This document shows positions 37,406-52,296 of a DNA stretch of 64,000 nt, piece after piece. The notes below the pieces were generated by a model. That model saw nothing but the letters and a program-made list of their open reading frames with translations. It ran no database searches and was not told the origin of the DNA. Position 1 is the first letter of the stretch. Every line of letters begins with the position of its first letter. Made by a program: the position numbers and the translations under genes. This DNA is from a virus, in the IMG/VR virus record IMGVR_UViG_3300021364_001752, positions 1 through 64,000 of that record; one strand, given 5' to 3'.

Positions 37406-38096
37406 AACTGTATATTCAATAGGGTGCAGTCATACTAATGGCTGCATGATTGACGGTATAAACGGAACAAGTAAAGTTAATAAACAAAATAGCTTTGCAG
37501 GACAAATTGCAAAAAGGCTTAAAGCAACACATTATAATCTGTCTTTAAACGGCGCAAGTAACCAGTATATATTTCGCATAGCTAACCAAGTTGTAGCGCA
37601 GGTCACTGACTCTGATGACACATTGTTTATAATAGGGTGGACTAGTCCTACTAGATTAGAGTTAAGAGAAGATAATAAAATTTTTCCAGGCCATCCTGAG
37701 GGATATGACAATAACTATATTCCTTTTAGTGTTGGGGCTAATAAAGACAACTTTTCTAAAGAGTATAAAAGGCTATTAAATGATGCACCTGCATTGTGTA
37801 ATATAACAATGTTAATTGATCACTGGACTTGCTACATCATTGCACTTCAAAATTTATTTGCACAGCATAAAATAAGATATATAATGTGTAATACAATGCA
37901 GCCCATTGAGCAAACAAGCAATAATAGTGACATGATTAAAATGATAGATACATCAAATTATTATAAACCTTTTGATGTTGATGAAAGTTTTTATAATTGG
38001 GCAAACCTTAATTATGAAAGAACACCATGTCATCACTTCCCCTTAAAAGCACATAAAGATTTTGCTGTAAAAATTATGAAAGAGATGAAATTATGA
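37398..38096 (+). CDS. SGNH/GDSL-like hydrolase-fold protein
   Basis: GCSHT, NLSLNGASN, IIGWT, C-terminal HHFP..H. Confidence 0.6.
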   Translation: MVKTVYSIGCSHTNGCMIDGINGTSKVNKQNSFAGQIAKRLKATHYNLSLNGASNQYIFRIANQVVAQVTDSDDTLFIIGWTSPTRLELREDNKIFPGHPEGYDNNYIPFSVGANKDNFSKEYKRLLNDAPALCNITMLIDHWTCYIIALQNLFAQHKIRYIMCNTMQPIEQTSNNSDMIKMIDTSNYYKPFDVDESFYNWANLNYERTPCHHFPLKAHKDFAVKIMKEMKL

Positions 38097-38779
38097 GTGA
38101 AGTTTGGAATACACTGATTAAAATTCAAGATAGACTAATTGAACGTTTTGATGATACTGGCAAAGAAATAGAAGAACCAGGAATGAATAGATTCAATCAA
38201 CCAGGCTGGATTAATAGAGTTTGGAGCAGTGAAGCCTATCGTCGAGCTCACGTAGATGTTGTCGATGCAAGAGACACTAAAGGTCTATGGATGATGCATT
38301 GTTGTGTGTTTCCACACTTGCACAACGATGGTCCTATCTTTGGATTAGATGTTATTGCAGGTAAAAATAAAATTACAGGTTACTTTCATGATTACTCACC
38401 GACTAGCAATCCTGCAAATGAAATGATTGAGGCGTTTGGAGATGAAGTTGCAAAACTAGAATGGCGCAAACCTCGCGAGCTACCAGATTGGGCCAAAGCA
38501 ATATTTACAGAACATATGGTAGCAGCAGGAAATGTTAACAGCGAAGAAGAATTACAGCAGTTGCTTGATCTTAGTTTTGAAAGCATAGATAACTATCTAG
38601 AATACATTAGTGCATACAATAACGTAGCCAACGAGCAAGCAGGTAAAGATGCACAAAATCGCTATGCTCATTATCAAAAACAAAATCCGCATACGCCACG
38701 CACAATGACCAGTTTAGGACTTGATGAAGAAGATGTGCAAGTATTTGTGCAGGAGTGTCTTTTTCCCGACATTGAATAA
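38093..38779 (+). CDS. pcyX: Ferredoxin-dependent bilin reductase, PcyX type
   Basis: YRRAHVD, WMMHCCVFP, PIFGLDVIAG, HDYSP, ELPDWA, QKQNPHT; D55/H69/D86 pattern. Confidence 0.85.
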   Translation: MSEVWNTLIKIQDRLIERFDDTGKEIEEPGMNRFNQPGWINRVWSSEAYRRAHVDVVDARDTKGLWMMHCCVFPHLHNDGPIFGLDVIAGKNKITGYFHDYSPTSNPANEMIEAFGDEVAKLEWRKPRELPDWAKAIFTEHMVAAGNVNSEEELQQLLDLSFESIDNYLEYISAYNNVANEQAGKDAQNRYAHYQKQNPHTPRTMTSLGLDEEDVQVFVQECLFPDIE

Positions 38780-39804
38780 TGCCACAATGCAAAGCTCTAA
38801 CAAACCAACTTCATATTAATGTAGACGGGGAATATAAGCCCTGTTGTGCCTATAGTGGTGATACAGGTTACAAGGTAGCTAACACCGATCATAAAGATTT
38901 TTTGTCCAGCCCGTTGATGCAAACCATTAAGCAAGAAATGGAACAAGGATGGCATGACGGGTGTCTTGGGTGCAAACACGCAGAAGAAAGTGGACAAATG
39001 AGTGCTCGCAATGCATTTAATATGTGGTGCAAACAGCAACCTGGTGTGTTAGAATATCTTGATATAAGTTTAAGCAATCAATGCAATCTAGCCTGTAGAA
39101 TGTGCAATGAGATAAGCAGTAGTCGTTGGGAAAAATTATTAGACTGTAAAACTGCTCCTAAAAATAATTTAGATAGCATAATAAAAGACCTAGATTTAAA
39201 TCTATTAAATCACATAAAGTATCAAGGCGGCGAGCCTTTTATAACTCCTGAAATAATAGATGTGTTAAAATTAGTTGCTTCGCAAAAAACTTTCTTTACA
39301 TTCAGCACCAACTTGACGCTGTATCCTAAAAAGTATGAAAGCCTACTAATGCAAGCCAAAGGAATATATGCAAACTTTAGTTTGGACGGATACAAGCATG
39401 TAAACAATTATATAAGAAGTTGTGCTTGGGATACTATAGATTCTAATCTAGATCGTTGGCTTAAATTTTTTAAAAAATACAATATCAAAGGTATGCAAAA
39501 TGTTAGCACAGTGGTTCAAGCTCTAAATTTTCACGACCTTCAAAATATAAAAAATTATGTAAACGGAAAAAATATAATTTGGATAGCACAAGAAATAGTA
39601 GATCCTGATTATATGAGTATAAATGCTTTACCTGAATCTTATATAGAGCAAGTTATAGACGATGTAAATTCAAAATTTTTACACTCATACAAATTTGATC
39701 AACAACTTTTTAAAGATTTTAAACAAAACATTTTGGCACAAGATAAGTTGTTAGGCACAACATTGCAAACAGTAAATCCGTTGCTGTATTCTTATTTAGA
39801 ATAA
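38779..39804 (+). CDS. Radical SAM protein with SPASM/twitch-like N-terminal domain
   Basis: CNLACRMC, GGEP, PCC..CxxC. Confidence 0.85.
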   Translation: MPQCKALTNQLHINVDGEYKPCCAYSGDTGYKVANTDHKDFLSSPLMQTIKQEMEQGWHDGCLGCKHAEESGQMSARNAFNMWCKQQPGVLEYLDISLSNQCNLACRMCNEISSSRWEKLLDCKTAPKNNLDSIIKDLDLNLLNHIKYQGGEPFITPEIIDVLKLVASQKTFFTFSTNLTLYPKKYESLLMQAKGIYANFSLDGYKHVNNYIRSCAWDTIDSNLDRWLKFFKKYNIKGMQNVSTVVQALNFHDLQNIKNYVNGKNIIWIAQEIVDPDYMSINALPESYIEQVIDDVNSKFLHSYKFDQQLFKDFKQNILAQDKLLGTTLQTVNPLLYSYLE

Positions 39805-39811
39805 ATACTGT

Positions 39812-40594
39812 ATGCGTTATAAAGAAGTTATACCAGAACAAGATAGAATCGTGTCTGTCGGCGGCGACAAATTGCTATATCATTCAACCAGCTATGCGCA
39901 TGCCGCTGCCATACTAAGCGATGATGGATTCAAGCCCGGAGTATCAGATGGCGGGCAACCTGTAAAAAAGGACAGTTTTATCAGTTTTAGTAGAACACCC
40001 GGAAACACATATGCAGGGTCATCTATGACTGTTACATTTGAAATTGATGAAGAAAAATTACAAAGACATTTGAATAGCCAGGCAAGAAAATTTGACATGG
40101 AGCCGCATAGATTTGCAAGATTTTATCACGGAGAGCGTGAAACAAGATTGAACCTAGGCGGTGCTGACAAAATTACAAACTTAAAAAAATTTGTAAGAGC
40201 AATTCATGTATGGCCTGTCAAAGATATACAAGATGTAGCATCATGGGAAATTGAAGCAGACAAAATGCCTGCTATGGTAGGAGGTTTAGACAGTGATCCT
40301 AATCGTGTTGATCCAGCTGATCCTAATGCTAGAACACCCAAAGGCGAAGCACAATATAGAAAAATAGTTACAGGCCATGCAAAAACAGAAGCAGAACCGT
40401 TGGATGTGATGCTTAAACTTGCAAAACAAAAAGGCATACGCACTCATATCTATTTAGACAGAACAGACTTTTTGTCTAAGCGCATAGACCGTAGTGCAAG
40501 GGTAACAAATAGGCCTGCAATTTTTCCAATTGTTAAGGCATTACTACAGCGCAAATTTGTAAAAGCAGCAAGGTTAATAGGCGGAGATAAATAG
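39812..40594 (+). CDS. Putative ADP-ribosyltransferase-fold virion protein
   Basis: LYHSTS..AILSDDGF, FISFSR, ExE (ERETR). Confidence 0.45.
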   Translation: MRYKEVIPEQDRIVSVGGDKLLYHSTSYAHAAAILSDDGFKPGVSDGGQPVKKDSFISFSRTPGNTYAGSSMTVTFEIDEEKLQRHLNSQARKFDMEPHRFARFYHGERETRLNLGGADKITNLKKFVRAIHVWPVKDIQDVASWEIEADKMPAMVGGLDSDPNRVDPADPNARTPKGEAQYRKIVTGHAKTEAEPLDVMLKLAKQKGIRTHIYLDRTDFLSKRIDRSARVTNRPAIFPIVKALLQRKFVKAARLIGGDK

Positions 40595-40597
40595 TAT

Positions 40598-41695
40598 ATG
40601 CGTTACAATGATTTTAAATTAGTTGAATATGTAGATCCAGAAGAAGCCAAGCGTGAAATCTTGACAAAAGTTCAACAACTAGATGTAAATACAGAAGAAA
40701 ACCAAGCTCTGCTTGACAGAGTTTACAGCATTGTGCATCAGACAGGTGTTACTGATAGACTTATGCCCAGCCTAGAAGGTGCTCTTAAAGACGAGTATAA
40801 CGATGCTGCAATCAAAATGATAGCAGAAAAAATTGTAATAGCAAATAGTTTAAATTTAGCGCAAAAGAAAAAATTCTTACAAAACTTAGAAAATAACAAG
40901 TGTGTAAATCACAAGTTATTTCTTCAAAATGGCCATTTCAATTTAGACGAATTGTTCTACAACGACCCTATTAACAAACAGATGTTTTTAGAATTTATAA
41001 ACTTTGGTGCTGGCCAAAAACGTGCAGGTAAAGGTGAACATGCATTTGCTATTCTAAGTCAGAATATTACACAAAAAGGCTTAGGCGATCTTGATGTTGA
41101 TGGTGCACCAGTTGAGTTAAAAGTTGCAACTACAAAAGGTAGCGGTAGACTAGGCGAAGGCGGAGTTAACCCAGAAAAAGCAAGACAAATAATTGCACAA
41201 TTTGAAGAACTAACGGATGCACTAAATGGATACTCCAAAGGTGGACACCAAGGTGATAGTGAATTTATTAAAAGTCGCGGCACTCCAGACAAACCACAAA
41301 AAAGTGTAAACCTAGTAGACTTTACTCGTATATGTAATGCATTGAGATTAGACGAGCAGCGCAGACAAGCCATAGGCAAAGCAGTATTCAATGATAGGTT
41401 TGGAAAGTTTGGCGATACTATTACAGCAGTATTCCAAAAACCTGGTGCAGCACCAACAGCAGTGCTTGATGCTTATATTGAAGCAAACTTTGAATTCTAC
41501 AAAGCAAGTGAAGGTGGCGGCGCATGGCAAACATTAACTAGTATTGCATTAGGATCAAACAGTGGTGTGACAGCTGATACTGGCAAAGCATTAGCTCAAC
41601 TTTTTGCAGATGGCGCTCTTGCTAGCAGTATTCCTGCTGTAATTCCTACACAAGATCCTGAAGTTTTCTATCAAGTTAACCCAGCCGTAAAGTAA
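40598..41695 (+). CDS. Putative virion protein with PD-(D/E)xK-like motif
   Basis: GKGE..GDLDVDG..VELK..GRL; MRYNDFKLVE N-terminus. Confidence 0.45.
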   Translation: MRYNDFKLVEYVDPEEAKREILTKVQQLDVNTEENQALLDRVYSIVHQTGVTDRLMPSLEGALKDEYNDAAIKMIAEKIVIANSLNLAQKKKFLQNLENNKCVNHKLFLQNGHFNLDELFYNDPINKQMFLEFINFGAGQKRAGKGEHAFAILSQNITQKGLGDLDVDGAPVELKVATTKGSGRLGEGGVNPEKARQIIAQFEELTDALNGYSKGGHQGDSEFIKSRGTPDKPQKSVNLVDFTRICNALRLDEQRRQAIGKAVFNDRFGKFGDTITAVFQKPGAAPTAVLDAYIEANFEFYKASEGGGAWQTLTSIALGSNSGVTADTGKALAQLFADGALASSIPAVIPTQDPEVFYQVNPAVK

Positions 41696-41742
41696 GCAGT
41701 TATAAAAGAACTGTTTCGATAAATATACATGGAGGGCCATGT

Positions 41743-42225
41743 ATGAAAAGAATAGCGAACATCGCCATGTTGCTGCCTATGTTTGTGTCACTGTCAGTGT
41801 CACATGCAGGAGCAGATCTAGTTCATCAGTTTAAAAATCCCAGTTTTAGTGGTATTGGGTATAGCACCCATGTTTTGAGTTTAGAACAATTACAATTTAA
41901 CAGAACAGAGGACATTGCAAAGGCAGCTGAAGCAGAAGAGCGTAGGCTAGAGCGCGAGCTAGAAAATTCAACATTAAACAAATTTATTAAAAATGTAGAG
42001 TCTCGCATATATGCAACATTGAGCAAGCAAATGGTAGACGCTATGTTTGAATCATGCACTGATGACACTGGGCTTACCTGTCCTACAAGCGGAACTACTG
42101 AAATTGAGGATAGCACCATTACTTGGAGCAAAGATACAACCACAGGAGAAATTACAATTGTTGTTGATGGTCCTGACGGTTATACTGAAATCAGCATACC
42201 GGGATCAGGGGAGTTTGCCTTTTGA
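41743..42225 (+). CDS. csgF: Curli assembly protein CsgF-like
   Basis: Signal peptide then DLVHQFKNPSFSG; F..NVESRI..LS; TEISIP. Confidence 0.85.
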   Translation: MKRIANIAMLLPMFVSLSVSHAGADLVHQFKNPSFSGIGYSTHVLSLEQLQFNRTEDIAKAAEAEERRLERELENSTLNKFIKNVESRIYATLSKQMVDAMFESCTDDTGLTCPTSGTTEIEDSTITWSKDTTTGEITIVVDGPDGYTEISIPGSGEFAF

Positions 42226-43001
42226 AGTATTTAATGATACTTGGAATTTTATTTTTAACAGGTTGCACGGTGCCACAAAGCGTTCAAGAAGCAATGGATA
42301 GCGAACCTGAAGTCCAAGTAAATCCTATGCAAGCTGAGTTGAGAGCACTACCTGGACCAGATGGCGATCCAGTGCCAATAGGTGTTTACAGTTTTTCAGA
42401 CAAAACTGGACAGCGTAAGCCTGCTGACAGTGTAGCAAATCTAAGTTCAGCTGTTACACAAGGCGCAGAAGTATGGCTTATTGATGCACTACTGGAGGCA
42501 GGCGAAGGCGAATGGTTTAATGTTGTCGAGCGTGTTAGTTTAGACAACATTATAAGAGAAAGACAACTTATACGAAGCACAAGGGAAAATTATGATGATC
42601 CAAGTCCTTTAGAGCCAATGCTCTTCGCAGGAGTGGTTTTAGAAGGCGGAATTATAGGATATGACAGCAACCAGACCACAGGAGGGTATGGTGCAAGATA
42701 TTTTGGAATAGGCGCTGCTACTGAATACAGAGTAGATACTGTGACAGTTGGCATGCGTTTAGTGAGCGTTGGCACTGGAAGAGTGTTAATGAGCGTGGCA
42801 GCAGAGAAGACTATAGCTAGCCATAGGAGTGGGGCAGATGTTTTTAAGTTCTTAGACATGAGCACCAAGGCACTGGAAATAGAGAGCGGATACAGTGTCA
42901 ATGAGCCTACCAATTATGCTGTGAGGGCAGCAATAGAGGCAGGAGTAATAGAACTAATTTATGAAGGAAATCGAAAAGGTTTTTGGACATTTAAACAATG
43001 A
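42222..43001 (+). CDS. csgG: Curli secretion channel CsgG (lipoprotein)
   Basis: LTGC lipobox; VYSFSDKTGQRKP, SSAVTQGA, WF.VVER..L, EGGIIGYD, NEP..AVR.AIE. Confidence 0.95.
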   Translation: MKYLMILGILFLTGCTVPQSVQEAMDSEPEVQVNPMQAELRALPGPDGDPVPIGVYSFSDKTGQRKPADSVANLSSAVTQGAEVWLIDALLEAGEGEWFNVVERVSLDNIIRERQLIRSTRENYDDPSPLEPMLFAGVVLEGGIIGYDSNQTTGGYGARYFGIGAATEYRVDTVTVGMRLVSVGTGRVLMSVAAEKTIASHRSGADVFKFLDMSTKALEIESGYSVNEPTNYAVRAAIEAGVIELIYEGNRKGFWTFKQ

Positions 43002-43013
43002 GGGCAACGATAA

Positions 43014-43721
43014 ATGAAAAAAATAATATATGCCGCCTTATTTGGTCTTATTAGTTCGGTTGCATTAGCAAATGAAATTTATATCAGTCAAATAGGTGAC
43101 ACATTAGACTTAGACATTACCCAAAGCGGTGATAACAACAAAATAGGAACCAGTTTAGCCGATATGGTTATTCAAGGTGACGACATGACATTCAGTATTA
43201 CACAAACTGGAGATAGCAATACGATTGATGCAACTATAAAAGGAGCCAATTATACAGGCACATGGGATTTTACAGGAAGCAATAACGATGTTGATCTTTT
43301 ATGTAGTTCAACTACCGCAGGCAATTGTGATACTGTAACCCTTAACATAGATACCACTGGCGGATACAACAATTTCACATTTGCTATTGGCGAAACCGCT
43401 TCGGCTGACAGCAGTATTATTAACTTTACTGTGACAGGGGATAGTCAAGTATTTGATGTTACTGTAGATGGCGAAGCAATTGATGTAACAGTTGTAATTG
43501 ATGATGGCACAAGCGGTCTTACAAACACAGCGGGCAACACTAACAATTTAACAATTGATACAAGTGGCAATGGCGGAACCAACGGTAACACAGTTGACTT
43601 GAACATTACAGGTTCGGGTGGGACATACAACGTTACACAAACAGGAACGCTAATTGATCAGACCATTGATGCAACATTCAGTGGCGATGACGCAACAGTT
43701 GATATCACACAGAGCGACTGA
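43014..43721 (+). CDS. Curlin-like secreted beta-solenoid protein 1
   Basis: Signal peptide ALA/NEIYISQ; repeated I-T-Q-x-G-D-x-N beta-arc motifs. Confidence 0.75.
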   Translation: MKKIIYAALFGLISSVALANEIYISQIGDTLDLDITQSGDNNKIGTSLADMVIQGDDMTFSITQTGDSNTIDATIKGANYTGTWDFTGSNNDVDLLCSSTTAGNCDTVTLNIDTTGGYNNFTFAIGETASADSSIINFTVTGDSQVFDVTVDGEAIDVTVVIDDGTSGLTNTAGNTNNLTIDTSGNGGTNGNTVDLNITGSGGTYNVTQTGTLIDQTIDATFSGDDATVDITQSD

Positions 43722-44812
43722 TGTGGAGATTGTTATTTGTGCTGCTGTTTTTTGCCAGCAGTGCTATAGCTCAAATAGGCGAAATCGCTGACATAGAAGG
43801 CAGCGGCATTGTTAAGCGTGACAGTGAAAAGATAAAAGGTGAACTGGGCATTGGTGTTCAAATGGCCGACAAAATTATTACGGCCAAAGGACGTATGCAA
43901 TTACACTTCTCTGACGAAACTCGTGTAGACGTAACTGAGCATAGTGCAATGGTGATCGATGAGTTTATATATGATCCTGCACAAGGCACAGGTGCATTAA
44001 AAATGCGAGCTACATTGGGTGCAGTAAGATATGCCAGCGGACAGATAGCCAAAACCAGCAGACAAAGAGTTAGTATCAGAACACCTAGTGCAACTATCGG
44101 TGTTCGCGGCACAGACTTTATAATGATTGTTGATGAAATAGGCGGCAGCATGGTTACCCTCTTACCTAGCTGTGATGACAGAGGCTTTTGTATGGTTGGT
44201 GAAATTACTGTAGAGAGCGATGCAGGTATTGTAATAATGAATCAAGCCTATCAAACAACAATAGTTAAACACAGTGCTGCTCCTCCTGCGCCACCTAAGA
44301 TATTAGACTTACCAGACGATCTTTTACGTGCAATGTTGATAGTAAGAAAGACTTCTCCTTACGATGAAATTAATGAAGAGGCTGTAGCTGCAACAGATAT
44401 TTTAAAATTTGATTTTCTAGCATTTGATGGTTTAGATGAGGATTTACTTAATGCAGATGAGCTATGGGTAACTGATTTAGACAATGAATCTTATTTAAAC
44501 CAAATGTTTGTAGATCAGTTAACCCAGGCACTGAAAGAATTGTTCGCATTACTTACAAGTCTATTGGATTTACAAGCAGAAGAATTTATGCGTATACAAG
44601 TATTTGGATACGATCCCGAAACTGGTATAACCTTAGAAGACCAGCCACCAAATTATGTATTCACACGAACAGAAAATACACACCATGTGAGATTAACATT
44701 GAATGAAAATTATGGTTATAATATTGATTTAATTCAAAACGATTTTTCAATATTTGATTACAGTATAGGAGTAGGAGCAAATGACATTTACATCAATCAG
44801 CAAGAAAATTAA
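43721..44812 (+). CDS. Exported FecR-domain protein with acidic linker and curlin-like C-terminus
   Basis: Signal peptide; F.DET....EHS...IDEFIYDP, IRTPSATIGVRGTDF; ends GANDIYINQQEN. Confidence 0.85.
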   Translation: MWRLLFVLLFFASSAIAQIGEIADIEGSGIVKRDSEKIKGELGIGVQMADKIITAKGRMQLHFSDETRVDVTEHSAMVIDEFIYDPAQGTGALKMRATLGAVRYASGQIAKTSRQRVSIRTPSATIGVRGTDFIMIVDEIGGSMVTLLPSCDDRGFCMVGEITVESDAGIVIMNQAYQTTIVKHSAAPPAPPKILDLPDDLLRAMLIVRKTSPYDEINEEAVAATDILKFDFLAFDGLDEDLLNADELWVTDLDNESYLNQMFVDQLTQALKELFALLTSLLDLQAEEFMRIQVFGYDPETGITLEDQPPNYVFTRTENTHHVRLTLNENYGYNIDLIQNDFSIFDYSIGVGANDIYINQQEN

Positions 44813-45473
44813 ATTGCTGGTATTATTTGCAGCATTTCCTGCCCATGCTAACGAAATTTATATTACGCAAACCGGTGATAGCCTTGCCTTGCGTGTTGAG
44901 CAGCGAAGTGCAGACAATTATGTCAATCTAAGCAGCACTGGTAATACAAACGACATAAGCATTACACAAGGCATGCATTACGATGGCTCTACATATTGGG
45001 TAGACACAGACGAGACTGGTGGACACGAAGCATACTGGACCATTACTGGTGCAAACAATACCGTGTGGAGTAGTCAAACAGATGTCAACAGAGGTGGTGG
45101 TGGAGGATCTCCGCACCATTTGGCAAACATAGTAAATGGAGATTACAATACAATTGCACATACACAAATGGGAAAAGCAGGACACGATGGCTTTGTAGAA
45201 ATACAAGGTGACAACAATGATGTTACACTTTATCAGAGAGGTAATGGTGGTGCAAAGTGGGCAGATGTTGTGCTCAACGGTGATGGACATAGTGTAGACG
45301 TTAACCAAAGAGGAAGCCAAAGTGCTAATGCTACTGTAGATTTAACCAATAGTGGCGGTGCATATGATTTTATACTCACACAGAATGTTACTACTAGTGC
45401 TGATACATATAGTATAACTGGCATTTGCACAAACAGTGCAGGTTGCGCATTGTCTGTTGATCGCAACAACTAA
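44781..45473 (+). CDS. Curlin-like secreted beta-solenoid protein 2
   Basis: AHA/NEIYITQ; QGDNNDVTLYQRG, NGDGHSVDVNQRG; C-terminal Cys pair. Confidence 0.75.
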   Translation: MTFTSISKKIKLLVLFAAFPAHANEIYITQTGDSLALRVEQRSADNYVNLSSTGNTNDISITQGMHYDGSTYWVDTDETGGHEAYWTITGANNTVWSSQTDVNRGGGGGSPHHLANIVNGDYNTIAHTQMGKAGHDGFVEIQGDNNDVTLYQRGNGGAKWADVVLNGDGHSVDVNQRGSQSANATVDLTNSGGAYDFILTQNVTTSADTYSITGICTNSAGCALSVDRNN

Positions 45474-45492
45474 ATATATGTGAGGGCATACA

Positions 45493-45633
45493 ATGGGCGA
45501 AAGTATCATAGCATTCTTTGTAGCAGGATTTTTCACCGCATTTGGCTGGTGGGCTGCCGGCAAGGTTACCACACAGATTGACTCTCACATAGAGGAGCAG
45601 CACAATGGATCTAATTTGGGCACTGGCGATTAG
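45493..45633 (+). CDS. 46-aa single-TM peptide (not in ORF track)
   Basis: MGESIIAFFVAGFFTAFGWWAAGKV..; CTAAATA promoter and GAGG SD. Confidence 0.55.
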   Translation: MGESIIAFFVAGFFTAFGWWAAGKVTTQIDSHIEEQHNGSNLGTGD

Positions 45634-45952
45634 CACACATCTAGGAATGGAAGGCGATTACAACAGCATTCATCCACACGTAAGGATAGAAGATGGAGGA
45701 GCAATAGCAGGAGCCTATTACAACAGCATGGACCGCATAAGTTTATATGCGGGGCACAGATTAGAATCGGGTAACGCAGGCTTAGAGTTTGCGTTGGTCA
45801 CAGGATACGATGAATGGATGCCCGTAGCACCATACATTAGAGGCACATATGACTTAGGCAATGTTAGAGCGTTTGCATCACCAACAGGGGAAGTATGGAA
45901 CGGCGAAACCAATATAGGCGTGGTTTTTGGAATTGAATACACGTTTAAATAG
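45605..45952 (+). CDS. Small outer-membrane beta-barrel-like protein
   Basis: Alternating beta-strands, GAYYNS..S.YAG, LVTGY, C-terminal GIEYTFK; no clear signal peptide. Confidence 0.5.
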   Translation: MDLIWALAISTHLGMEGDYNSIHPHVRIEDGGAIAGAYYNSMDRISLYAGHRLESGNAGLEFALVTGYDEWMPVAPYIRGTYDLGNVRAFASPTGEVWNGETNIGVVFGIEYTFK

Positions 45953-46018
45953 TATGTGGACCGCGGCGTGAGGGCGCAACCGGCATAACAAGAAGTCTTC
46001 AATCAAGGAGAACATTAA

Positions 46019-47518
46019 ATGAGGGCAATCAAAAATACGTTAGGCGGAGCCATTGTCGCCTCTTTATTATCAACAACAGCAATGGCACACACAAATTCAG
46101 TTGGTTATGTTGGTGACGGTAACGGAAACATTACTGTATGGTATGGTTCATGGCACGACGGCACAACATTTAACGAAGCAGAACTAAAAGTATTAGATTC
46201 TAATGATGCTAAAATTACACAAACACAGTTTAACTTACTGTCGCAGGATTCACCAGCAGGACTTATCTCAGGTGTAAACTACTTTGGTAGTGATGGTATA
46301 CAGTTGATTGATTATGATGTAAACACGGGTGGTGGCGAGTCATACACTTGGCAAGGTGCAACATTTACACTGGCACCAGGTGACTACACATTTGTATACA
46401 TTCCATTACAGGATGCAGAAAGCACACTATGTCCGGCTGGCACATCAGGATGCGGTCCAACACAAGACTGGGTTCCAATGGACGAAATTATTCGCAGTTT
46501 AAGTATTACACTTACACAAAATGATATCGATGGTGATGCTAACGCAAACGGAATCCTTGATACAACTGAAGTTGCTGTAGGTGATGCGGCGGCCGCGGCA
46601 AGTGGTCCAACAGTAGTAAGCCAGGGTTCAAGCACAGTAATTGGATATGTTGCGGCAAGCGGCGGCGTTATACAGATTGTTCAAAGAACAAGCACAACAA
46701 CTATGTGGAATAATATGAGTGACGGATCTATAGATGGACTACACACAATGGCTCCTGTTACACTCGATCCGTTCGAAGGACGCATTGATCAGGTGGATCA
46801 AATGTTAAATTTAAATTTACATAGAAGCACACCTATTGCAGATGGTATTCAAAGCGGACGTATCAGTCACGAAATGGGCGACGGATATGACGCAGATACA
46901 AGAACCTATAGTTTAGGACACACTGTATTCACAGAAGAAGGTATGAGTATACAAGGTGGAATAACAAAAGGATCAACTACCTTTACAGGAAGCGATAGCA
47001 CAGGATCAATGGAATCTATGATGTTGCAAGGAAGAGTAGGTAAAGCCTTAGATGATAGAGATATTACAATAGGCGTAGGTGCGCATGTGCATAACAGCGA
47101 TATTGAATATTCTAGAACAATAGGAGATTTCAGTGCTGCTGGTTCAACCAGTGCAAGTGACATCGGAGCTAACATTACTTTTGAAAAATCAACTGGTAAC
47201 GTTCGTCCTTTTGTAGGATATACAATTGGAAAGCAGTCAACAGATGCTTATGATGAGACAGGAGATGCACAAGTAGCTCTATCACGTGATGCAGCAGAAG
47301 AGACTTACAACTTTGCAACAATTGGTATCAACATTGATGCAGGAATGTTTACAGCAAATTTTGCTAGAGATTTCGACGATGTAGGAACTACCAGAATAGG
47401 GCTGGGCATTGATAAGCACATAAATGATAGAATATCTATAGGTGCAAGTGCTAATCGTTCTATGAGTGGTGACAACACAAGCACATACCTAAGTGCAGGA
47501 TTTAAAATTAAATTTTAA
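46019..47518 (+). CDS. Autotransporter-like protein (passenger plus C-terminal beta-barrel)
   Basis: Signal peptide, DxDxDxN loop, RPFVGYT, terminal AGFKIKF. Confidence 0.7.
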   Translation: MRAIKNTLGGAIVASLLSTTAMAHTNSVGYVGDGNGNITVWYGSWHDGTTFNEAELKVLDSNDAKITQTQFNLLSQDSPAGLISGVNYFGSDGIQLIDYDVNTGGGESYTWQGATFTLAPGDYTFVYIPLQDAESTLCPAGTSGCGPTQDWVPMDEIIRSLSITLTQNDIDGDANANGILDTTEVAVGDAAAAASGPTVVSQGSSTVIGYVAASGGVIQIVQRTSTTTMWNNMSDGSIDGLHTMAPVTLDPFEGRIDQVDQMLNLNLHRSTPIADGIQSGRISHEMGDGYDADTRTYSLGHTVFTEEGMSIQGGITKGSTTFTGSDSTGSMESMMLQGRVGKALDDRDITIGVGAHVHNSDIEYSRTIGDFSAAGSTSASDIGANITFEKSTGNVRPFVGYTIGKQSTDAYDETGDAQVALSRDAAEETYNFATIGINIDAGMFTANFARDFDDVGTTRIGLGIDKHINDRISIGASANRSMSGDNTSTYLSAGFKIKF

Positions 47519-47564
47519 GTGATAGTTTTATTGCCCTCATTGGATAAATACCTTTGAGGGCAAT

Positions 47565-47960
47565 ATGAGAATAATAATTTTATTATGTATACTGGCGGGA
47601 CCAGTATGGGCTGACTCCAATCACGATAGCAAACTCTGCTTGGAGCGGTATGGGTATTCTGTAGAAAATTTTGATAGGTTTGACTGGAACAAAGCAGCAG
47701 CATGTGCAAGTAAACTAAGACAAAAACAAAATGCAGAAGAATTAGCAGAACTAAGAGACTTTCTCAAACATAATCCAAGATACAGAGTGCCAGGACAGAG
47801 TTTAAATCGTTGCTGGGGCAAGCCACGTGAAATGCCGTTTGAAAGTGTAACAGCAAGTGCCAGTGCAGATGGCAGTTGGCATGTGGGTGTAAATTATAAA
47901 GATAAACTGCCAGCAGGATGCTATGAAAATGCTCCGTGGGATAATAGGGACTCAAAATAA
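47565..47960 (+). CDS. Exported Cys-containing hypothetical protein
   Basis: Signal peptide VWA/D, four Cys in the mature part. Confidence 0.65.
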   Translation: MRIIILLCILAGPVWADSNHDSKLCLERYGYSVENFDRFDWNKAAACASKLRQKQNAEELAELRDFLKHNPRYRVPGQSLNRCWGKPREMPFESVTASASADGSWHVGVNYKDKLPAGCYENAPWDNRDSK

Positions 47961-48118
47961 TGTGGAAAACATCATTAGCAATACTTTTAATCATACTAGG
48001 CGTAACTTGGTGGAGGTATGGAGAGCAAAGTCAAACATATTGGCAGAACGTAGGACCTTCTTGGGACAAGATGTTAAACCCGAATAAATACACGGAGCAA
48101 CACAATGAAGGACAATAA
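47960..48118 (+). CDS. 52-aa single-TM peptide (not in ORF track)
   Basis: TAATG coupling; MWKTSLAILLIILGVTWWRYG.. Confidence 0.55.
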   Translation: MWKTSLAILLIILGVTWWRYGEQSQTYWQNVGPSWDKMLNPNKYTEQHNEGQ

Positions 48119-48120
48119 TA

Positions 48121-50169
48121 ATGACCAAAAAAATTCTTCTGTCACCACTGTGGAGCGTTCTGCTTTTAGGCCTCTTAGCCTACGTGATATCGCTGTCGCC
48201 CAGCTTCCTGCAGAGCATCCAACTAAGATACTTCGACCAACTTATAATCAATCAACCAAAAGTTGAAAACAATATCTACACTGTAGACATTGACGAAGAT
48301 ACAATCAACGCATATGGACAATGGCCATTTCCAAGGGGCGATTATGCAATGCTTATTGATGATCTTTATGCTAGGGGTGCAGGTTTGGTTGTGTTCAATG
48401 TTTTAATGAGTGAGCCTGATAGGTCTGGTCAGGACGATATACTTGCAGATACAATGGAACAGTTTCCTGTTATTTTAACCATGCTAGGAGCAGCAGAAGG
48501 TAAAAATGAACCTATCAATCCAGGTGCAACCATTGTTAACAGTGACTTCTTACACACAATTCCCAGTGTTCCAGGCATAATTGCCAATGTGCCTGAAATT
48601 GAAAATGTAGCAGTTGGAAGTGGAATAATCAACTCATGGGCAGAAATAGACGGCGTTACTAGACGCATACCACTGGTTGTTATGGCTGATGGCACATTGT
48701 ATCCTAATGTAACAATGGAAGTGTTACGTGTGTTAGCAGGTGATCCCTCGTTCCAAATCAAACTAAATGCACTAGGTGTAGACAAACTACGCATACCACA
48801 GTTTGGCTTTTTACAAACAAATCCAGATGGTGAAGTATGGATTGACTGGAGTCAAGGATATAAACGTTATAGTGCAGTAGACTTGCCAGACGACTTTGCG
48901 GGTGGTATTGTATTTGTAGGTCCAACAGCAGCTGGTGTAACACAACCTATAGCTACTGCAATGGGCAGTGTATTTCCGCATCAAATACAAGCAGCATTGC
49001 TTGGCACAGTTTTTAACGAATCAAACATAAGCAGACATCCTGACGCAGAAGCATGGGGCGAATTAGCCGCCTTTGTTGTTGCAGGCTTGCTGTTAATCGC
49101 ACTCGCCCGATGGACATATGTTGGCATAGCCTTTTACATTATGTCAGTAGGCGGCTTTATTGGAGTTAGTATATATGTATTTAATACGCAAAACATTCTT
49201 ATTGATGGCGCTACTATCAGTGCTTTCCTCTTGCTCGTGGGCCTTCAACGATACGTGCTCAAGTTCATCGACGAGTTCTTGCAAAAGCAAGCCATTAAAA
49301 AACAATTCGAAGGATACGCCAGCCCAGCAGTTGTTAAATTACTACAACAATCTCCAGAGCTTGTTAAGCAGGGTATAAAGAAAGATGTAAGCATCGTGTT
49401 CTCAGACTTACGTGGCTTTACACCATTAGGTGAAAGTTTTGGTGATGATGTGCAAGGACTTACAAGAATAATGAATGGCTATATGGATGCCATTACACAA
49501 CCTGTGCTAGACGCAGACGGGATGATTATAAAATATATTGGTGATGCAAGTATGCATATACACAACGCACCTATAGACGATGCTAACCACGCTAGAACAG
49601 CAGTGCAGTGTGGCTTAGACATGTTAAGAGCAGTGGAGAAATTCAATGACGAAGTTATTATTCCAGAAGGTCGCCCTCCTGTTGGGATGGGTGCTGGGAT
49701 TAATACTGGCCTTGGCTACATTGGCGAAATGGGCAGTAGTAAGCGGCATAGTTACGATGTGCTTGGAGACGCCGTCTCAACGGCTGCTAGGGTTGAATCT
49801 AAATGTAAAGAATACGGTTGTTTGTTATTGGTGGGAGAAGCCACCTATGAAGCAACTAAGGATGATTTCTTCTATTTAAAAATTGACGACTTGCAAGTTA
49901 AAGGCAAAAGTGTAGGATTAGGCATTTATACAGTTTTAGACGACACAAAGGCACACTTTACAGTTAGCAAAAAGTATCACGATCAAATGCACAAACAATA
50001 TAGAGATCAAGACTTTGACGGTGCTATAGAAACAATAAAGAAAATATACAGTGGATTTGATGGCAGGATGCAAGGGTATTATGATATGTGGATAGAACGT
50101 TGTGAGTATATGAAGAAGCAAGAATTGCCTTCAAATTGGAATGGCACATTTATAGCAACGTCTAAATAG
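48121..50169 (+). CDS. CHASE2-domain class III adenylate cyclase
   Basis: N-terminal TM, CHASE2 (VDID..GQWPFPR, DGVTRR.PL), 3 TMs, cyclase FSDLRGFT / KYIGDA / GINTG / YDVLGDAVSTAARVE. Confidence 0.93.
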   Translation: MTKKILLSPLWSVLLLGLLAYVISLSPSFLQSIQLRYFDQLIINQPKVENNIYTVDIDEDTINAYGQWPFPRGDYAMLIDDLYARGAGLVVFNVLMSEPDRSGQDDILADTMEQFPVILTMLGAAEGKNEPINPGATIVNSDFLHTIPSVPGIIANVPEIENVAVGSGIINSWAEIDGVTRRIPLVVMADGTLYPNVTMEVLRVLAGDPSFQIKLNALGVDKLRIPQFGFLQTNPDGEVWIDWSQGYKRYSAVDLPDDFAGGIVFVGPTAAGVTQPIATAMGSVFPHQIQAALLGTVFNESNISRHPDAEAWGELAAFVVAGLLLIALARWTYVGIAFYIMSVGGFIGVSIYVFNTQNILIDGATISAFLLLVGLQRYVLKFIDEFLQKQAIKKQFEGYASPAVVKLLQQSPELVKQGIKKDVSIVFSDLRGFTPLGESFGDDVQGLTRIMNGYMDAITQPVLDADGMIIKYIGDASMHIHNAPIDDANHARTAVQCGLDMLRAVEKFNDEVIIPEGRPPVGMGAGINTGLGYIGEMGSSKRHSYDVLGDAVSTAARVESKCKEYGCLLLVGEATYEATKDDFFYLKIDDLQVKGKSVGLGIYTVLDDTKAHFTVSKKYHDQMHKQYRDQDFDGAIETIKKIYSGFDGRMQGYYDMWIERCEYMKKQELPSNWNGTFIATSK

Positions 50170-50173
50170 TATT

Positions 50174-50818
50174 ATGCTGAACTACATAAGAAATTTATTC
50201 GGTAATCATACCGAAGAAAAACGCACTACAGATGATATAAATGTTATATGGCTACATGGCGCAAATCAGTCAAGTCTAAGTTTCAAATATCTACAAACCA
50301 AAACACAATTTTCAAATGAAATATTGCCTAACTATAGCAGTATGAATCGCTTCTATGATAATCTTGAAATGATTGCAGATTCATGCCAAGGCAAAGGTCC
50401 TCATTTTGTTATAGGTCATTCTATGGGCGGTCTATATGCACTGCATTTAACTAGATATGTTAGGGTAATTGGAGGAGTAAGCATAGGAACTCCCTTTGCA
50501 GGCAGTAGCACAGCAGATTGGGCAAAATATATAGTGCCAAACTATCAATTGTTTAGAGACATAGGACGTAAAAGCGACCCTGTAAAAGAATCACAACAAA
50601 TAGAATTAGAAATACCTTGGACTCAGATAGTAAGCACTCACGGAAGCGTTCCTTATCACGGTGGACCAAATGATGGTGTAGTGACAATTGCTAGCATGAA
50701 GTATAGAAAAGATATGAAAATTATTGAAGTTCCACATACACACCATGAAGTTATGGTTAGTGATAAAGTAGGCGAAATAATTTTAGATTCTTACAACGCT
50801 ATTGTAAATCCTTCTTGA
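50174..50818 (+). CDS. Alpha/beta hydrolase
   Basis: LHGAN, GHSMGG, GTPFAGS, NDGVV, HHEV. Confidence 0.85.
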   Translation: MLNYIRNLFGNHTEEKRTTDDINVIWLHGANQSSLSFKYLQTKTQFSNEILPNYSSMNRFYDNLEMIADSCQGKGPHFVIGHSMGGLYALHLTRYVRVIGGVSIGTPFAGSSTADWAKYIVPNYQLFRDIGRKSDPVKESQQIELEIPWTQIVSTHGSVPYHGGPNDGVVTIASMKYRKDMKIIEVPHTHHEVMVSDKVGEIILDSYNAIVNPS

Positions 50819-51197
50819 TTTCTTTTAGATCGTCTTTGCTAAAACTTTCTTTATTTAAATCTGGCTTAGGCTTTGGTGCTTCCTCTATGCCTGTGCTGTT
50901 GAAAACTTCGCTAGTGCTTTGGTAACGAGCAACAATATCATTTAGTTCGTCCTGTCTTTCTTTGTCTAACATGGCACGATGTTCTAGAACCATACTTAGT
51001 TTACTATTAAGTCTAATCATATCATTGTCAAGCATACGAATACGATCAACAAGTTTTATTAATGTTCCCATTGTTTCACCTAGCACAGGATCAATGGTTT
51101 CAGTTACCCATTTCCATATAAAGAATATAAAATACCCCATACCCATTGCGGCAATAATAGGAAATCCGTATTCTGCTACTGCTGCTCCGATATCCAT
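50799..51197 (-). CDS. TM plus coiled-coil protein (YvrJ/holin-like topology)
   Basis: YGFPI TM; LVDRIRMLDNDMIRL. Confidence 0.6.
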   Translation of the reverse strand: MDIGAAVAEYGFPIIAAMGMGYFIFFIWKWVTETIDPVLGETMGTLIKLVDRIRMLDNDMIRLNSKLSMVLEHRAMLDKERQDELNDIVARYQSTSEVFNSTGIEEAPKPKPDLNKESFSKDDLKEIKKDLQ

Positions 51198-51476
51198 TTA
51201 GTCTCTCCTAGCATCATTTTTGCCTTCGTTGGCTGCAATACGGTCTATATTTGGTTTTACATTGAGTGCGTAACTAAGTAGTGCATCTATCTTAACAAGG
51301 TCATTGTTCATCGTTTGAACACGGTTGTCCAATTGACCAATGATGTTCTTAAGAGTCGTTACACTACCTGTTACACCAGCTAATATGAATTTTAGTGTGA
51401 GAAATACAAAGCCACCTGCGGCTAATGCTCCAGCTATTGGAAACCCTACATCGCCCACTAAACTTAAAAAATCCAT
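51198..51476 (-). CDS. TM plus coiled-coil protein, paralog of downstream gene
   Basis: VGFPI TM; LDNRVQTMNNDLVKI. Confidence 0.6.
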   Translation of the reverse strand: MDFLSLVGDVGFPIAGALAAGGFVFLTLKFILAGVTGSVTTLKNIIGQLDNRVQTMNNDLVKIDALLSYALNVKPNIDRIAANEGKNDARRD

Positions 51477-51570
51477 TTGCCCTCCTGGTAGAACGCCCTC
51501 ACGCTCTGCACTTGTATTTAGTAGTTGACAACCGTAAATGATATGTTATACTACAACAAAGGAGTAAAAA

Positions 51571-52296
51571 ATGGCTACTAAAGAAGAAAAGCAAGAAACG
51601 GTTGATGTTCTAAAAGGTCCGCGATACTATCGTATCTATTTGAATGGATATGGTGGCGAAGCAGCATACATCAACATTTCAAAAGAAGCATATGAATTTT
51701 GGAAAGATGTTACTGAAGAAAATGGCGACAGCGATCTTGTAAATTATATGGTAGAAGCAGAGAACGGCGATTTAGATGATCTAGAAGTTATCGTTCCGCC
51801 TGAAGCAATGTTTATGCAGGAAGAAGACGATGGGGAAGTATATGCTTATCCTTGGTATGAATCACCACATGAATTTGTGCATCAATACGGTGTAGAATAT
51901 GGTAGTGCTAGGCTTGTAGTTGAGGAAGTTGATTCAGATGACTATATGAGCAAAACAATTGCAGATGTAATTGATGGCGAAGATCTACAAGAGTATATGG
52001 ACAATGTAATGGAGAAAAACAATTACGAATTTGATCTAGTTGAAGCAGATGAGGACTTTGGCGAAGAAGGCGATTATGTTGTTCAATTCTACAGTAGTGA
52101 AAAAGGCTGCTTTTTTGATGGCATCATCGACACTCACGGCGAGTTTGATCCTACAAAATTAAAAGTCATTTATACAGAATATCCTAATGGCGAAGATGTT
52201 GTAACCAGTATTGAATACGACGGTGTTGAGATTGATAATCAAGGTGGCGATACAAACGGCAAAGGATATTCAGCTCACCTTTGGAAAAATGTATAA
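51571..52296 (+). CDS. Acidic hypothetical protein
   Basis: TTGACA-16-TATACT at 51525; AGGAG SD. Confidence 0.7.
   Translation: MATKEEKQETVDVLKGPRYYRIYLNGYGGEAAYINISKEAYEFWKDVTEENGDSDLVNYMVEAENGDLDDLEVIVPPEAMFMQEEDDGEVYAYPWYESPHEFVHQYGVEYGSARLVVEEVDSDDYMSKTIADVIDGEDLQEYMDNVMEKNNYEFDLVEADEDFGEEGDYVVQFYSSEKGCFFDGIIDTHGEFDPTKLKVIYTEYPNGEDVVTSIEYDGVEIDNQGGDTNGKGYSAHLWKNV

Follow-up and report, generated by a model that had tools for sequence, protein, structure and literature searches.

Can a phage that carries genes for a surface fibre also report on that fibre to the cytoplasm of the cell it infects? This question is raised by nine open reading frames (ORFs), all on the + strand, at positions 41743-50169 of a 64,000-nucleotide stretch (hereafter 'the window', i.e. 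the whole DNA analysed) from the IMG/VR virus record IMGVR_UViG_3300021364_001752. The ORFs follow one another in the order csgF, csgG, curlin 1, FecR, curlin 2, three cargo genes and CHASE2 cyclase; in other words, the genes of a curli-type or type VIII secretion system (T8SS) share a locus with a FecR-domain gene and a receptor-type nucleotide cyclase. An earlier note on this DNA had described nine co-oriented genes at these positions, which is borne out by the ORF map and, for the csg, curlin, FecR and cyclase labels, by Pfam and PHROG matches. The reading favoured here, with chances put at about even, is that the locus is a composite of two bacterial cassettes in which the FecR protein relays the state of secretion or of the fibre to the CHASE2 cyclase, the relay being the part that is inferred.

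The same note had held the combined module to be undescribed, which is wrong. The arrangement csgF-csgG-csgA/B-FecR-csgA/B-AC (AC, adenylate cyclase) is already in the pelagiphage literature, where T8SS, FecR and adenylate cyclase of pelagiphage myo- and podoviruses are presented as a co-selected module (Wittmers et al. 2022, PMC9599517) that has alphaproteobacterial affinities, is absent from bacterial curli operons and is expressed in Pacific metatranscriptomes; the csgF/csgG part is discussed by Zaragoza-Solas et al. 2020 (PMC7029224) and Buchholz et al. 2022 (PMC9004378). The window holds one more copy of this published module and its practical value is small. The text of Wittmers et al. 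2022 makes no mention of CHASE2, NsrA, autotransporters or the hydrolase, and it identifies neither a curlin-like FecR tail nor an Asn-to-Ser active site. What is added here is a proposed two-cassette origin, the coupling of FecR to the csg operon over the cyclase, a variable slot for outer-membrane cargo and a clade of cyclases with Ser in place of Asn. Among marine heterotrophs, the most abundant ones (SAR11, OM43 and relatives) have phages in which the block is widespread. If FecR and CHASE2 do read a phage-made fibre, it would amount to a virus-installed envelope sensor altering host second-messenger levels during infection, with a bearing on aggregation, superinfection and ocean carbon export.

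Origin and linkage of the locus

Linkage was surveyed from both sides of the block. Starting from the cyclase, 234 IMG/VR contigs with a relative were found and 80 were fetched; the order csgF-csgG-cur1-FecR-cur2-(0 to 3 cargo genes)-cyclase occurs in every fetched locus with enough upstream DNA. Starting from FecR, the best 80 of 551 viral loci were fetched: the cyclase is present in 60 loci, 17 are too short and one is without it. Inversion or an upstream shift of the cyclase, still adjacent, is seen in four loci on the FecR side, and linkage is kept despite inversion or relocation in L075, L148, L151, L164 and L170. The earlier note had proposed a synteny search in which an unlinked cyclase would count against its proposal; the cyclase stays linked to the csg and FecR genes (60/61 informative loci on the FecR side, all on the cyclase side). 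With the same gene order in the closest isolates, the Kyanoviridae phages Melnitz and HTVC008M, and in all informative cyclase-side loci, the locus is a conserved phage-borne unit. L161 is the only viral locus that has FecR and a curlin with the cyclase absent within 10 kb downstream (at least 6 kb being available), and may represent a naturally occurring variant of the 'FecR without cyclase' kind.

Bacterial counterparts were found for each part. The best bacterial CsgG matches lie in loci of the type csgF-csgG-curlin-curlin or curlin-csgH-x-csgF-csgG, the former order occurring in Azospirillum and Sphingobium, and the phage CsgG is 46-53% identical to alphaproteobacterial CsgG. For the cyclase, a tblastn search against plasmids and chromids returned CHASE2 cyclases with 27-29% identity over >90% of the length (27% over 94% for CyaK). 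A FecR-domain gene lies directly upstream of, and co-oriented with, the CHASE2 cyclase in 5/5 alphaproteobacterial replicons (S. meliloti pSymB, Paracoccus, two Ruegeria and Shinella); on pSymB it encodes a 1190-aa FecR+TPR protein, NsrA, directly upstream of cyaK. The analogy with NsrA/CyaK, on which the earlier note leaned, is therefore valid, since the FecR-domain gene adjoins the CHASE2 cyclase in S. meliloti and in four other replicons. As published (PMC7529298, PMC13001267), NsrA, an envelope protein whose FecR domain is periplasmic, is required for signalling through the CHASE2 cyclases CyaK/CyaD, and clustering of FecR with CHASE2 cyclases is also known in Campylobacterota (PMC9239204).

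The two parts were not found together in bacteria. Profile hidden Markov models (HMMs) were built for the FecR sandwich, CHASE2 and the catalytic domain, and bacterial controls were detected at 1e-22 to 1e-87; none of the three domains was detected within ~9 kb of csgG in 10 bacterial curli loci (7 chromosomal, 3 plasmid), and csgG/csgF is found in none of the five bacterial FecR-CHASE2 loci, in line with PMC9599517. Judged from these sequences, the composite of both cassettes is specific to phages among the sampled loci.

The FecR-fold protein, the cyclase and the secretion genes

The FecR-fold protein (363 aa; 43721..44812, +; PF04773, 6e-9; phrog_37870, 2e-94) has a signal peptide; as in pairs of the NsrA/CyaK type, it is an exported protein with an N-terminal FecR domain. 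An AlphaFold2 (AF2) model based on a 26-row alignment (mean predicted local distance difference test score, pLDDT, 80) gives a confident FecR/PupR-type beta-sandwich at residues ~16-207 with two invariant Cys, followed by a conserved acidic linker of low model confidence (206-256), a helix (258-289) and a small beta domain (296-360). Residues 47-207 match the C-terminal cell-surface signalling domain of PupR (6ovk_R; VIA Z 15.2, root-mean-square deviation (rmsd) 2.8 A, 135 aligned) and residues 16-110 the N-terminal anchoring domain of the RTX adhesin MpIBP (5ix9; Z 9.4, rmsd 2.3 A, 73/76 aligned). Among longer bacterial proteins with this FecR domain, two matches only were obtained, both adhesin-like.

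The other end of the protein has a distinct signature. All FecR homologues, including those of Melnitz and HTVC008M, end in x-I-x-I-x-Q, Gln360 being the sole invariant residue of the C-terminal half, and this end strand resembles the first strand of both mature curlins (NEIYI[ST]Q). A curlin fold for the C-terminal domain as a whole was considered and rejected, given a weak hhalign comparison and a best match of the lone model to a p32-like sheet at E 0.26. The curlin-like label thus appears to fit only the terminal strand, not the C-terminal domain.

The CHASE2 receptor-type class III nucleotide cyclase (48121..50169, +; PF05226, 2e-36; PF00211 (Guanylate_cyc), 1.5e-17; phrog_35576, 6e-166) is 49% identical to the enzyme of Melnitz and 34% identical to that of HTVC008M. 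According to a transmembrane (TM) scan, it consists of a TM segment, ~290 periplasmic residues (CHASE2), a TM cluster, the catalytic domain and a conserved C-terminal region of ~80 aa, i.e. the TM-CHASE2-TM-class III cyclase plan. Residues D429, D475, K471, D546 and R557 are invariant in 26 sequences and align with solved cyclases, so that the two metal-binding Asp, the substrate Lys and Asp (ATP-type pair) and the transition-state Arg of class III enzymes are all in place. The product is predicted to be cyclic AMP (cAMP) or a related cyclic nucleotide.

Active sites and pairwise distances were compared across 72 non-redundant loci, and two active-site types emerged. Asp546/Ser553 is found in the window, in Melnitz and in 60/72 viral loci, and Ser/Asn in 12/72; in phage enzymes of the HTVC008M type and bacterial ones of the CyaK type, position 546 is Ser/Thr and position 553 is Asn. 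Ser553, encoded at window positions 49777-49779, aligns with the Asn of solved cyclases and of the CyaK-type and HTVC008M enzymes. In mammalian work on an N1025S mutant this Asn reportedly matters for kcat, and a Ser there could lower activity; by this analogy the phage cyclase may be slower or differently tuned. Distances in the CHASE2+TM half and in the catalytic half correlate poorly (rho 0.14-0.42; 0.14 among 60 loci), which points either to recombination close to the membrane/catalytic junction or to strongly differing selection on the two halves of the cyclase gene.

On the secretion side, csgF (41743..42225, +; PF10614, 1.4e-12; phrog_35372, 5.5e-45) encodes the T8SS pore adaptor, with a signal peptide and a mature N-terminus of the FKNPSFSG type, i.e. 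with the pore-binding motif kept. The adjoining csgG (42222..43001, +; PF03783, 2.3e-51) starts with TTG and encodes the outer-membrane curli secretion channel lipoprotein (lipobox LTGC). Curlin-like subunits 1 (43014..43721, +) and 2 (44781..45473, +) both have signal peptides and match Curlin_rpt above the gathering score (8e-5 and 1.8e-7, respectively). The mature N-terminus is NEIYISQ in curlin 1, whose strands repeat x-I-x-I-x-Q-x-G-D/N, and NEIYITQ in curlin 2, which has a conserved C-terminal CxNxxGCxVxVxQ; the two family profiles match one another (hhalign 98.7%). A CsgG lipoprotein channel, a csgF gene adjoining csgG and curlin-repeat subunits with signal peptides, the features of type VIII (curli) secretion, are all found here, and csgE, csgC, csgD and csgH are absent from the phage locus.

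Relay, accessory or tether

How FecR is tied to its neighbours can be read from the spacing of the genes and from their co-inheritance. The gaps are -4 nt for csgF/csgG, +12 nt for csgG/cur1, -1 nt for cur1/FecR and -32 nt for FecR/cur2, the last overlap being found also in Melnitz and HTVC008M (29 nt in both); FecR is, on this sequence evidence, predicted to be translationally coupled to the csg genes. Beyond curlin 2, the gaps are +131 nt to the 115-aa gene (cargo gene 1), +66 nt from there to the 499-aa gene (cargo gene 2, p499), +46 nt to the 131-aa gene (cargo gene 3, p131), +160 nt to the cyclase and +4 nt from the cyclase to a hydrolase-like gene, and the cyclase (with the hydrolase) is likewise predicted to form a separate transcription unit behind the variable cargo slot. 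The 'late-type promoters' under which the earlier note had placed these genes are plausible as far as the hexamer TAAATA is concerned: of its 8 + strand copies in 40500-51600, 6 are followed by a start codon within 75 nt, with (G/A)ATAAATA at -23 (csgF), -20 (p131) and -36 (cyclase). They do not extend to the T4 late box TATAAATA, which is unenriched in the window (4 found vs 5.6 expected) and has no exact copy in the locus. A further motif, (U)GAGGGC, occurs 5-12 nt before the starts of csgF, cur1 and p131 and ~40 nt before that of p499 (41725-41740, 42996-43010, 45970-45985 and 47530-47562); the copy before p131 pairs with GCCCTCA in a hairpin. The motif looks mainly like a GAGG-type ribosome-binding site.

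Pairwise distances of CsgF, CsgG, curlin 1 and both FecR halves correlate closely with one another (rho 0.76-0.88). The active-site type of the cyclase (Asp/Ser or Ser/Asn) needs a single change on the cyclase tree as against 3 on that of CsgF+CsgG+FecR, from which the cyclase type appears to have been swapped between csg/FecR lineages at least twice. A strong mosaic, as might be read from the distance correlations, was nevertheless rejected, because the clade-level test shows mostly shared inheritance: for the csg/FecR clade of 14 members that includes the window, 2 changes suffice on either cyclase tree, vs ~13 for shuffled labels, so the cyclase is mostly co-inherited, with occasional exchange. 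The evidence points to a FecR protein that is first of all a component of the curli operon.

In the favoured mechanism, the first cassette would be an alphaproteobacterial-type csgF-csgG-curlin-curlin operon, giving a CsgG/CsgF outer-membrane pore and secreted curlin-like fibre subunits in the infected cell, and the second a FecR-domain protein with a CHASE2 cyclase, of the NsrA-CyaK pair type. The FecR gene would have been relocated into the csg operon between the curlins, and its protein would have lost any barrel. As a periplasmic or pore-associated accessory of the phage T8SS, FecR would touch curlin or CsgG/CsgF with its C-terminal end and modulate the CHASE2 domain with its FecR domain; the cyclase would then make cAMP or a related cyclic nucleotide according to secretion or fibre state, and a host factor would read the signal. 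Lysis timing or aggregation as outputs are speculation. A complex prediction for FecR 20-200 with CHASE2 28-320 (26-row alignments each) scored 0.15 against a mark of 0.32, which speaks neither for nor against binding.

A number of observations weigh against this relay. FecR and the cyclase are not adjacent, 3.3 kb (curlin 2 and the three cargo genes) and probably a promoter lying between them. The N-terminal part of FecR tracks CsgG (rho 0.88) and not CHASE2 (0.25), and since the latter value is close to that of CsgG vs CHASE2 (0.18), a specific FecR-CHASE2 co-variation signal is lacking. Podovirus modules keep FecR, often without the cyclase and the second curlin (PMC9599517), which suggests that the primary partner of FecR is the T8SS. 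Likeness of the FecR C-terminal domain to the curlins is slight (hhalign P ~1e-3, probability 22-28%, with a CsgF control at 5e-3), and when modelled alone the domain reaches pLDDT 66 and has no PDB match at E <= 0.001. In the cyclase the catalytic Asn is absent, the position of this Asn in the GDxVN motif being taken by Ser553 (GDAVSTAAR), invariant in the clade. Neither a cyclic nucleoside monophosphate (cNMP)-binding domain nor a cAMP receptor was found in the contig, in Melnitz, in HTVC008M or three large relatives; whichever protein reads the signal would come from the host or be of a non-canonical kind. Contigs of DNase-treated marsh metatranscriptomes cover cur1, cur2, the cargo genes and the cyclase in pieces, at 100% identity (the uncovered parts being uninformative), and are consistent with transcription of the locus, but DNA carry-over into the RNA library is possible and uncontrolled. 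The FecR-CHASE2 contact and a curlin-dependent cAMP output are both hypothetical.

Much of this evidence would suit two independent functions that travel together, FecR being a T8SS accessory (a CsgE/CsgH-like chaperone, a gate or a fibre anchor), the cyclase sensing an unrelated periplasmic cue, and the two having become neighbours through a hypervariable envelope-modifying island. Such independence is possible, if somewhat doubtful. It would explain why FecR is coupled to, and co-varies with, the csg genes and not CHASE2, why curlin 2 is set apart from the cyclase by a promoter-like ATAAATA and a cargo slot of variable content, why the cyclase type was exchanged at least twice and why podovirus modules have FecR without the cyclase (PMC9599517), and the accessory role is indeed vacant with csgE, csgC and csgH absent from the phage. 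It fits less well with a cyclase that remains by the module in 60/61 informative loci despite inversion, relocation and replacement, with FecR and CHASE2 cyclase as an established bacterial pair (PMC9239204), or with the few changes in the 14-member clade (2 vs ~13 shuffled), by which the cyclase is mostly co-inherited. At the opposite end stands a more literal coupling, in which FecR would be a trans-outer-membrane tether that mechanically passes the pull or occupancy of the fibre to the Ser-for-Asn cyclase, making the locus a phage-built surface-to-cytoplasm mechanosensor. The N-terminal sandwich, PupR- and RTX-anchor-like, would be a periplasmic plug touching CHASE2, the acidic linker would pass through the CsgG/CsgF channel, for which a positively charged lining is predicted in Melnitz (PMC9004378), and outside the cell the fibre would be nucleated or anchored by the curlin-like strand at the C-terminus. 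This tether is considered unlikely.

Two further explanations dispense with a sensed fibre. The CsgG/CsgF pore could have been turned into a gated channel, pinholin or secretin by which lysis is timed, without fibres, the cyclase and FecR regulating or gating it (Buchholz et al. 2022). A pore of this kind was proposed for Melnitz from structure modelling and synteny, clumping was not seen with Melnitz in culture (PMC9004378), and late-promoter-like boxes do lie 5' of csgF and of the cyclase; the proposal assumed, however, that fibre genes were lacking, whereas two curlin-repeat genes with signal peptides are conserved here, in Melnitz and in HTVC008M, and the N-terminal pore-binding motif of CsgF is kept; a lysis pore appears quite improbable. 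Uptake or iron sensing, one reading in Wittmers et al. 2022 (PMC9599517), would have an ungated CsgG pore import cofactors or siderophores, with FecR as an iron-citrate-type regulator. The FecR family name and the missing csgE gate lend themselves to it, but an anti-sigma or transmembrane part is missing from the phage protein, which has a cleavable signal peptide and, of FecR, the periplasmic sandwich only; the locus is without a partner of the FecI or FecA type, and in bacteria the counterparts of this protein are paired with CHASE2 cyclases, not sigma factors. This explanation is very improbable.

Cargo genes, source phage and known systems

The slot between curlin 2 and the cyclase gathers variable outer-membrane cargo genes, 0 to 3 per locus. 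Cargo gene 1 (115 aa; 45605..45952, +) is beta-rich and possibly barrel-like, with a weak match to phrog_3600 ('PagP', 2.6e-10). Among the first 84 loci it is present in 33. The ORF cannot be extended in the 5' direction, as there is an in-frame stop 15 nt before it. The label 'small barrel' given to it earlier retains some support in these weak PagP and OMP-barrel signals, but OMP_b-brl is matched by only 3/17 homologues, at E 0.002 or weaker. The family has conserved H12, H23-P24-H25 and N40-S41, and no homologue has a signal peptide although the gene stands among genes for exported proteins. Cargo gene 2 (499 aa; 46019..47518, +) encodes an outer-membrane protein resembling autotransporters: a signal peptide is followed by a passenger that varies and by a conserved barrel region at the C-terminus, which ends in ...GFKIKF. 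Here the label 'autotransporter' is backed in part by the signal peptide, by PF03797 in 2/12 homologues (best 1e-11) and by atlas neighbours (0.97/0.91) that are clusters carrying PF03797, and is weakened by the window protein itself, which has no direct Pfam match. Profile searches of solved structures with the autotransporter-like and 115-aa families gave no usable match. Cargo gene 3 (131 aa; 47565..47960, +) encodes a Cys-containing protein without a Pfam match or family; its description as an exported protein agrees with a signal-peptide-like N-terminus and conservation in 12 loci.

The hydrolase-like gene (50174..50818, +) starts 4 nt past the cyclase and encodes a protein of alpha/beta-hydrolase type with a GHSMGG elbow, Abhydrolase_6/11 matches just under the cut-offs (1.6e-5 to 2.7e-5) and no signal peptide. 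It is found 3' of the cyclase in 24 related loci (66-79% identity) and may belong to the cyclase unit in this sub-clade. The FecR-CHASE2 pair of Paracoccus has a cNMP-binding patatin-like phospholipase as its neighbour, which makes an effector of lipase type conceivable.

The window belongs to an 80-kb IMG/VR virus contig, linear and ~25% complete (CheckV), with ribonucleotide reductase (RNR) and tail-fibre genes; its source is an uncultured marine T4-like phage, contained in seawater and marsh metagenomes of several studies. A megablast search of the locus against the phage collection gave no match. Upstream of the module, at 38093-39804, there are two auxiliary genes with no relation to the curli block, one similar to ferredoxin-dependent bilin reductases (PF05996, 9e-18) and the other of the radical SAM/SPASM type. 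The gene immediately 5' of csgF (40598-41695) is not a histidine kinase and matches no family. Bacterial copies of the cyclase were sought among genome contigs, and only contigs of metagenome-assembled genomes (MAGs) resembling mis-binned phage turned up. One MAG, 'Rhodobacteraceae bacterium Water_Bin34' (L085, L086, L179-L183; G004), has five separate small contigs with phage-type csgG and two with the phage cyclase; these are probably phage contigs mis-binned into the MAG, and give a weak host hint at best.

Set against FecR/PupR and MpIBP, to which its sequence identity is 12-20% only (6ovk and 5ix9), the phage FecR protein is without the anti-sigma part, the transmembrane segment and the TonB-dependent transducer partner of the former and without the RTX adhesin body of the latter. 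In common with NsrA-CyaK (CyaD1/D2), the locus has a TM-CHASE2-TM-class III cyclase and, upstream of it on the same strand, a gene for an exported protein whose N-terminal domain is FecR. In contrast to NsrA, the phage protein has 363 aa, is without TPR and, in the AF2 model, without an outer-membrane barrel, and its gene lies inside a curli operon; the FecR partners in Ruegeria are also short (313 aa), so a barrel is not universal. At the two active-site positions that are Ser-Thr/Asn in CyaK-type enzymes, the cyclases of this clade have Asp/Ser, and the phage is without the Clr/CRP-type receptor of the S. meliloti pathway. Alphaproteobacterial curli operons (Dueholm et al. 2012, as cited in PMC7029224) have the same order of csg genes and no csgE, csgC or csgD; csgH, absent from the phage, is present in some. 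The nearest relative is the viral T8SS of pelagiphages and methylophages (HTVC008M, KC465899; Melnitz, MZ577097), with the same genes in the same order on a single strand. The histidine kinase described for podovirus modules is absent at the window locus, which adds to the pelagiphage T8SS three exported or outer-membrane-type genes before the cyclase and a hydrolase after it, additions common only to an uncultured sub-clade.

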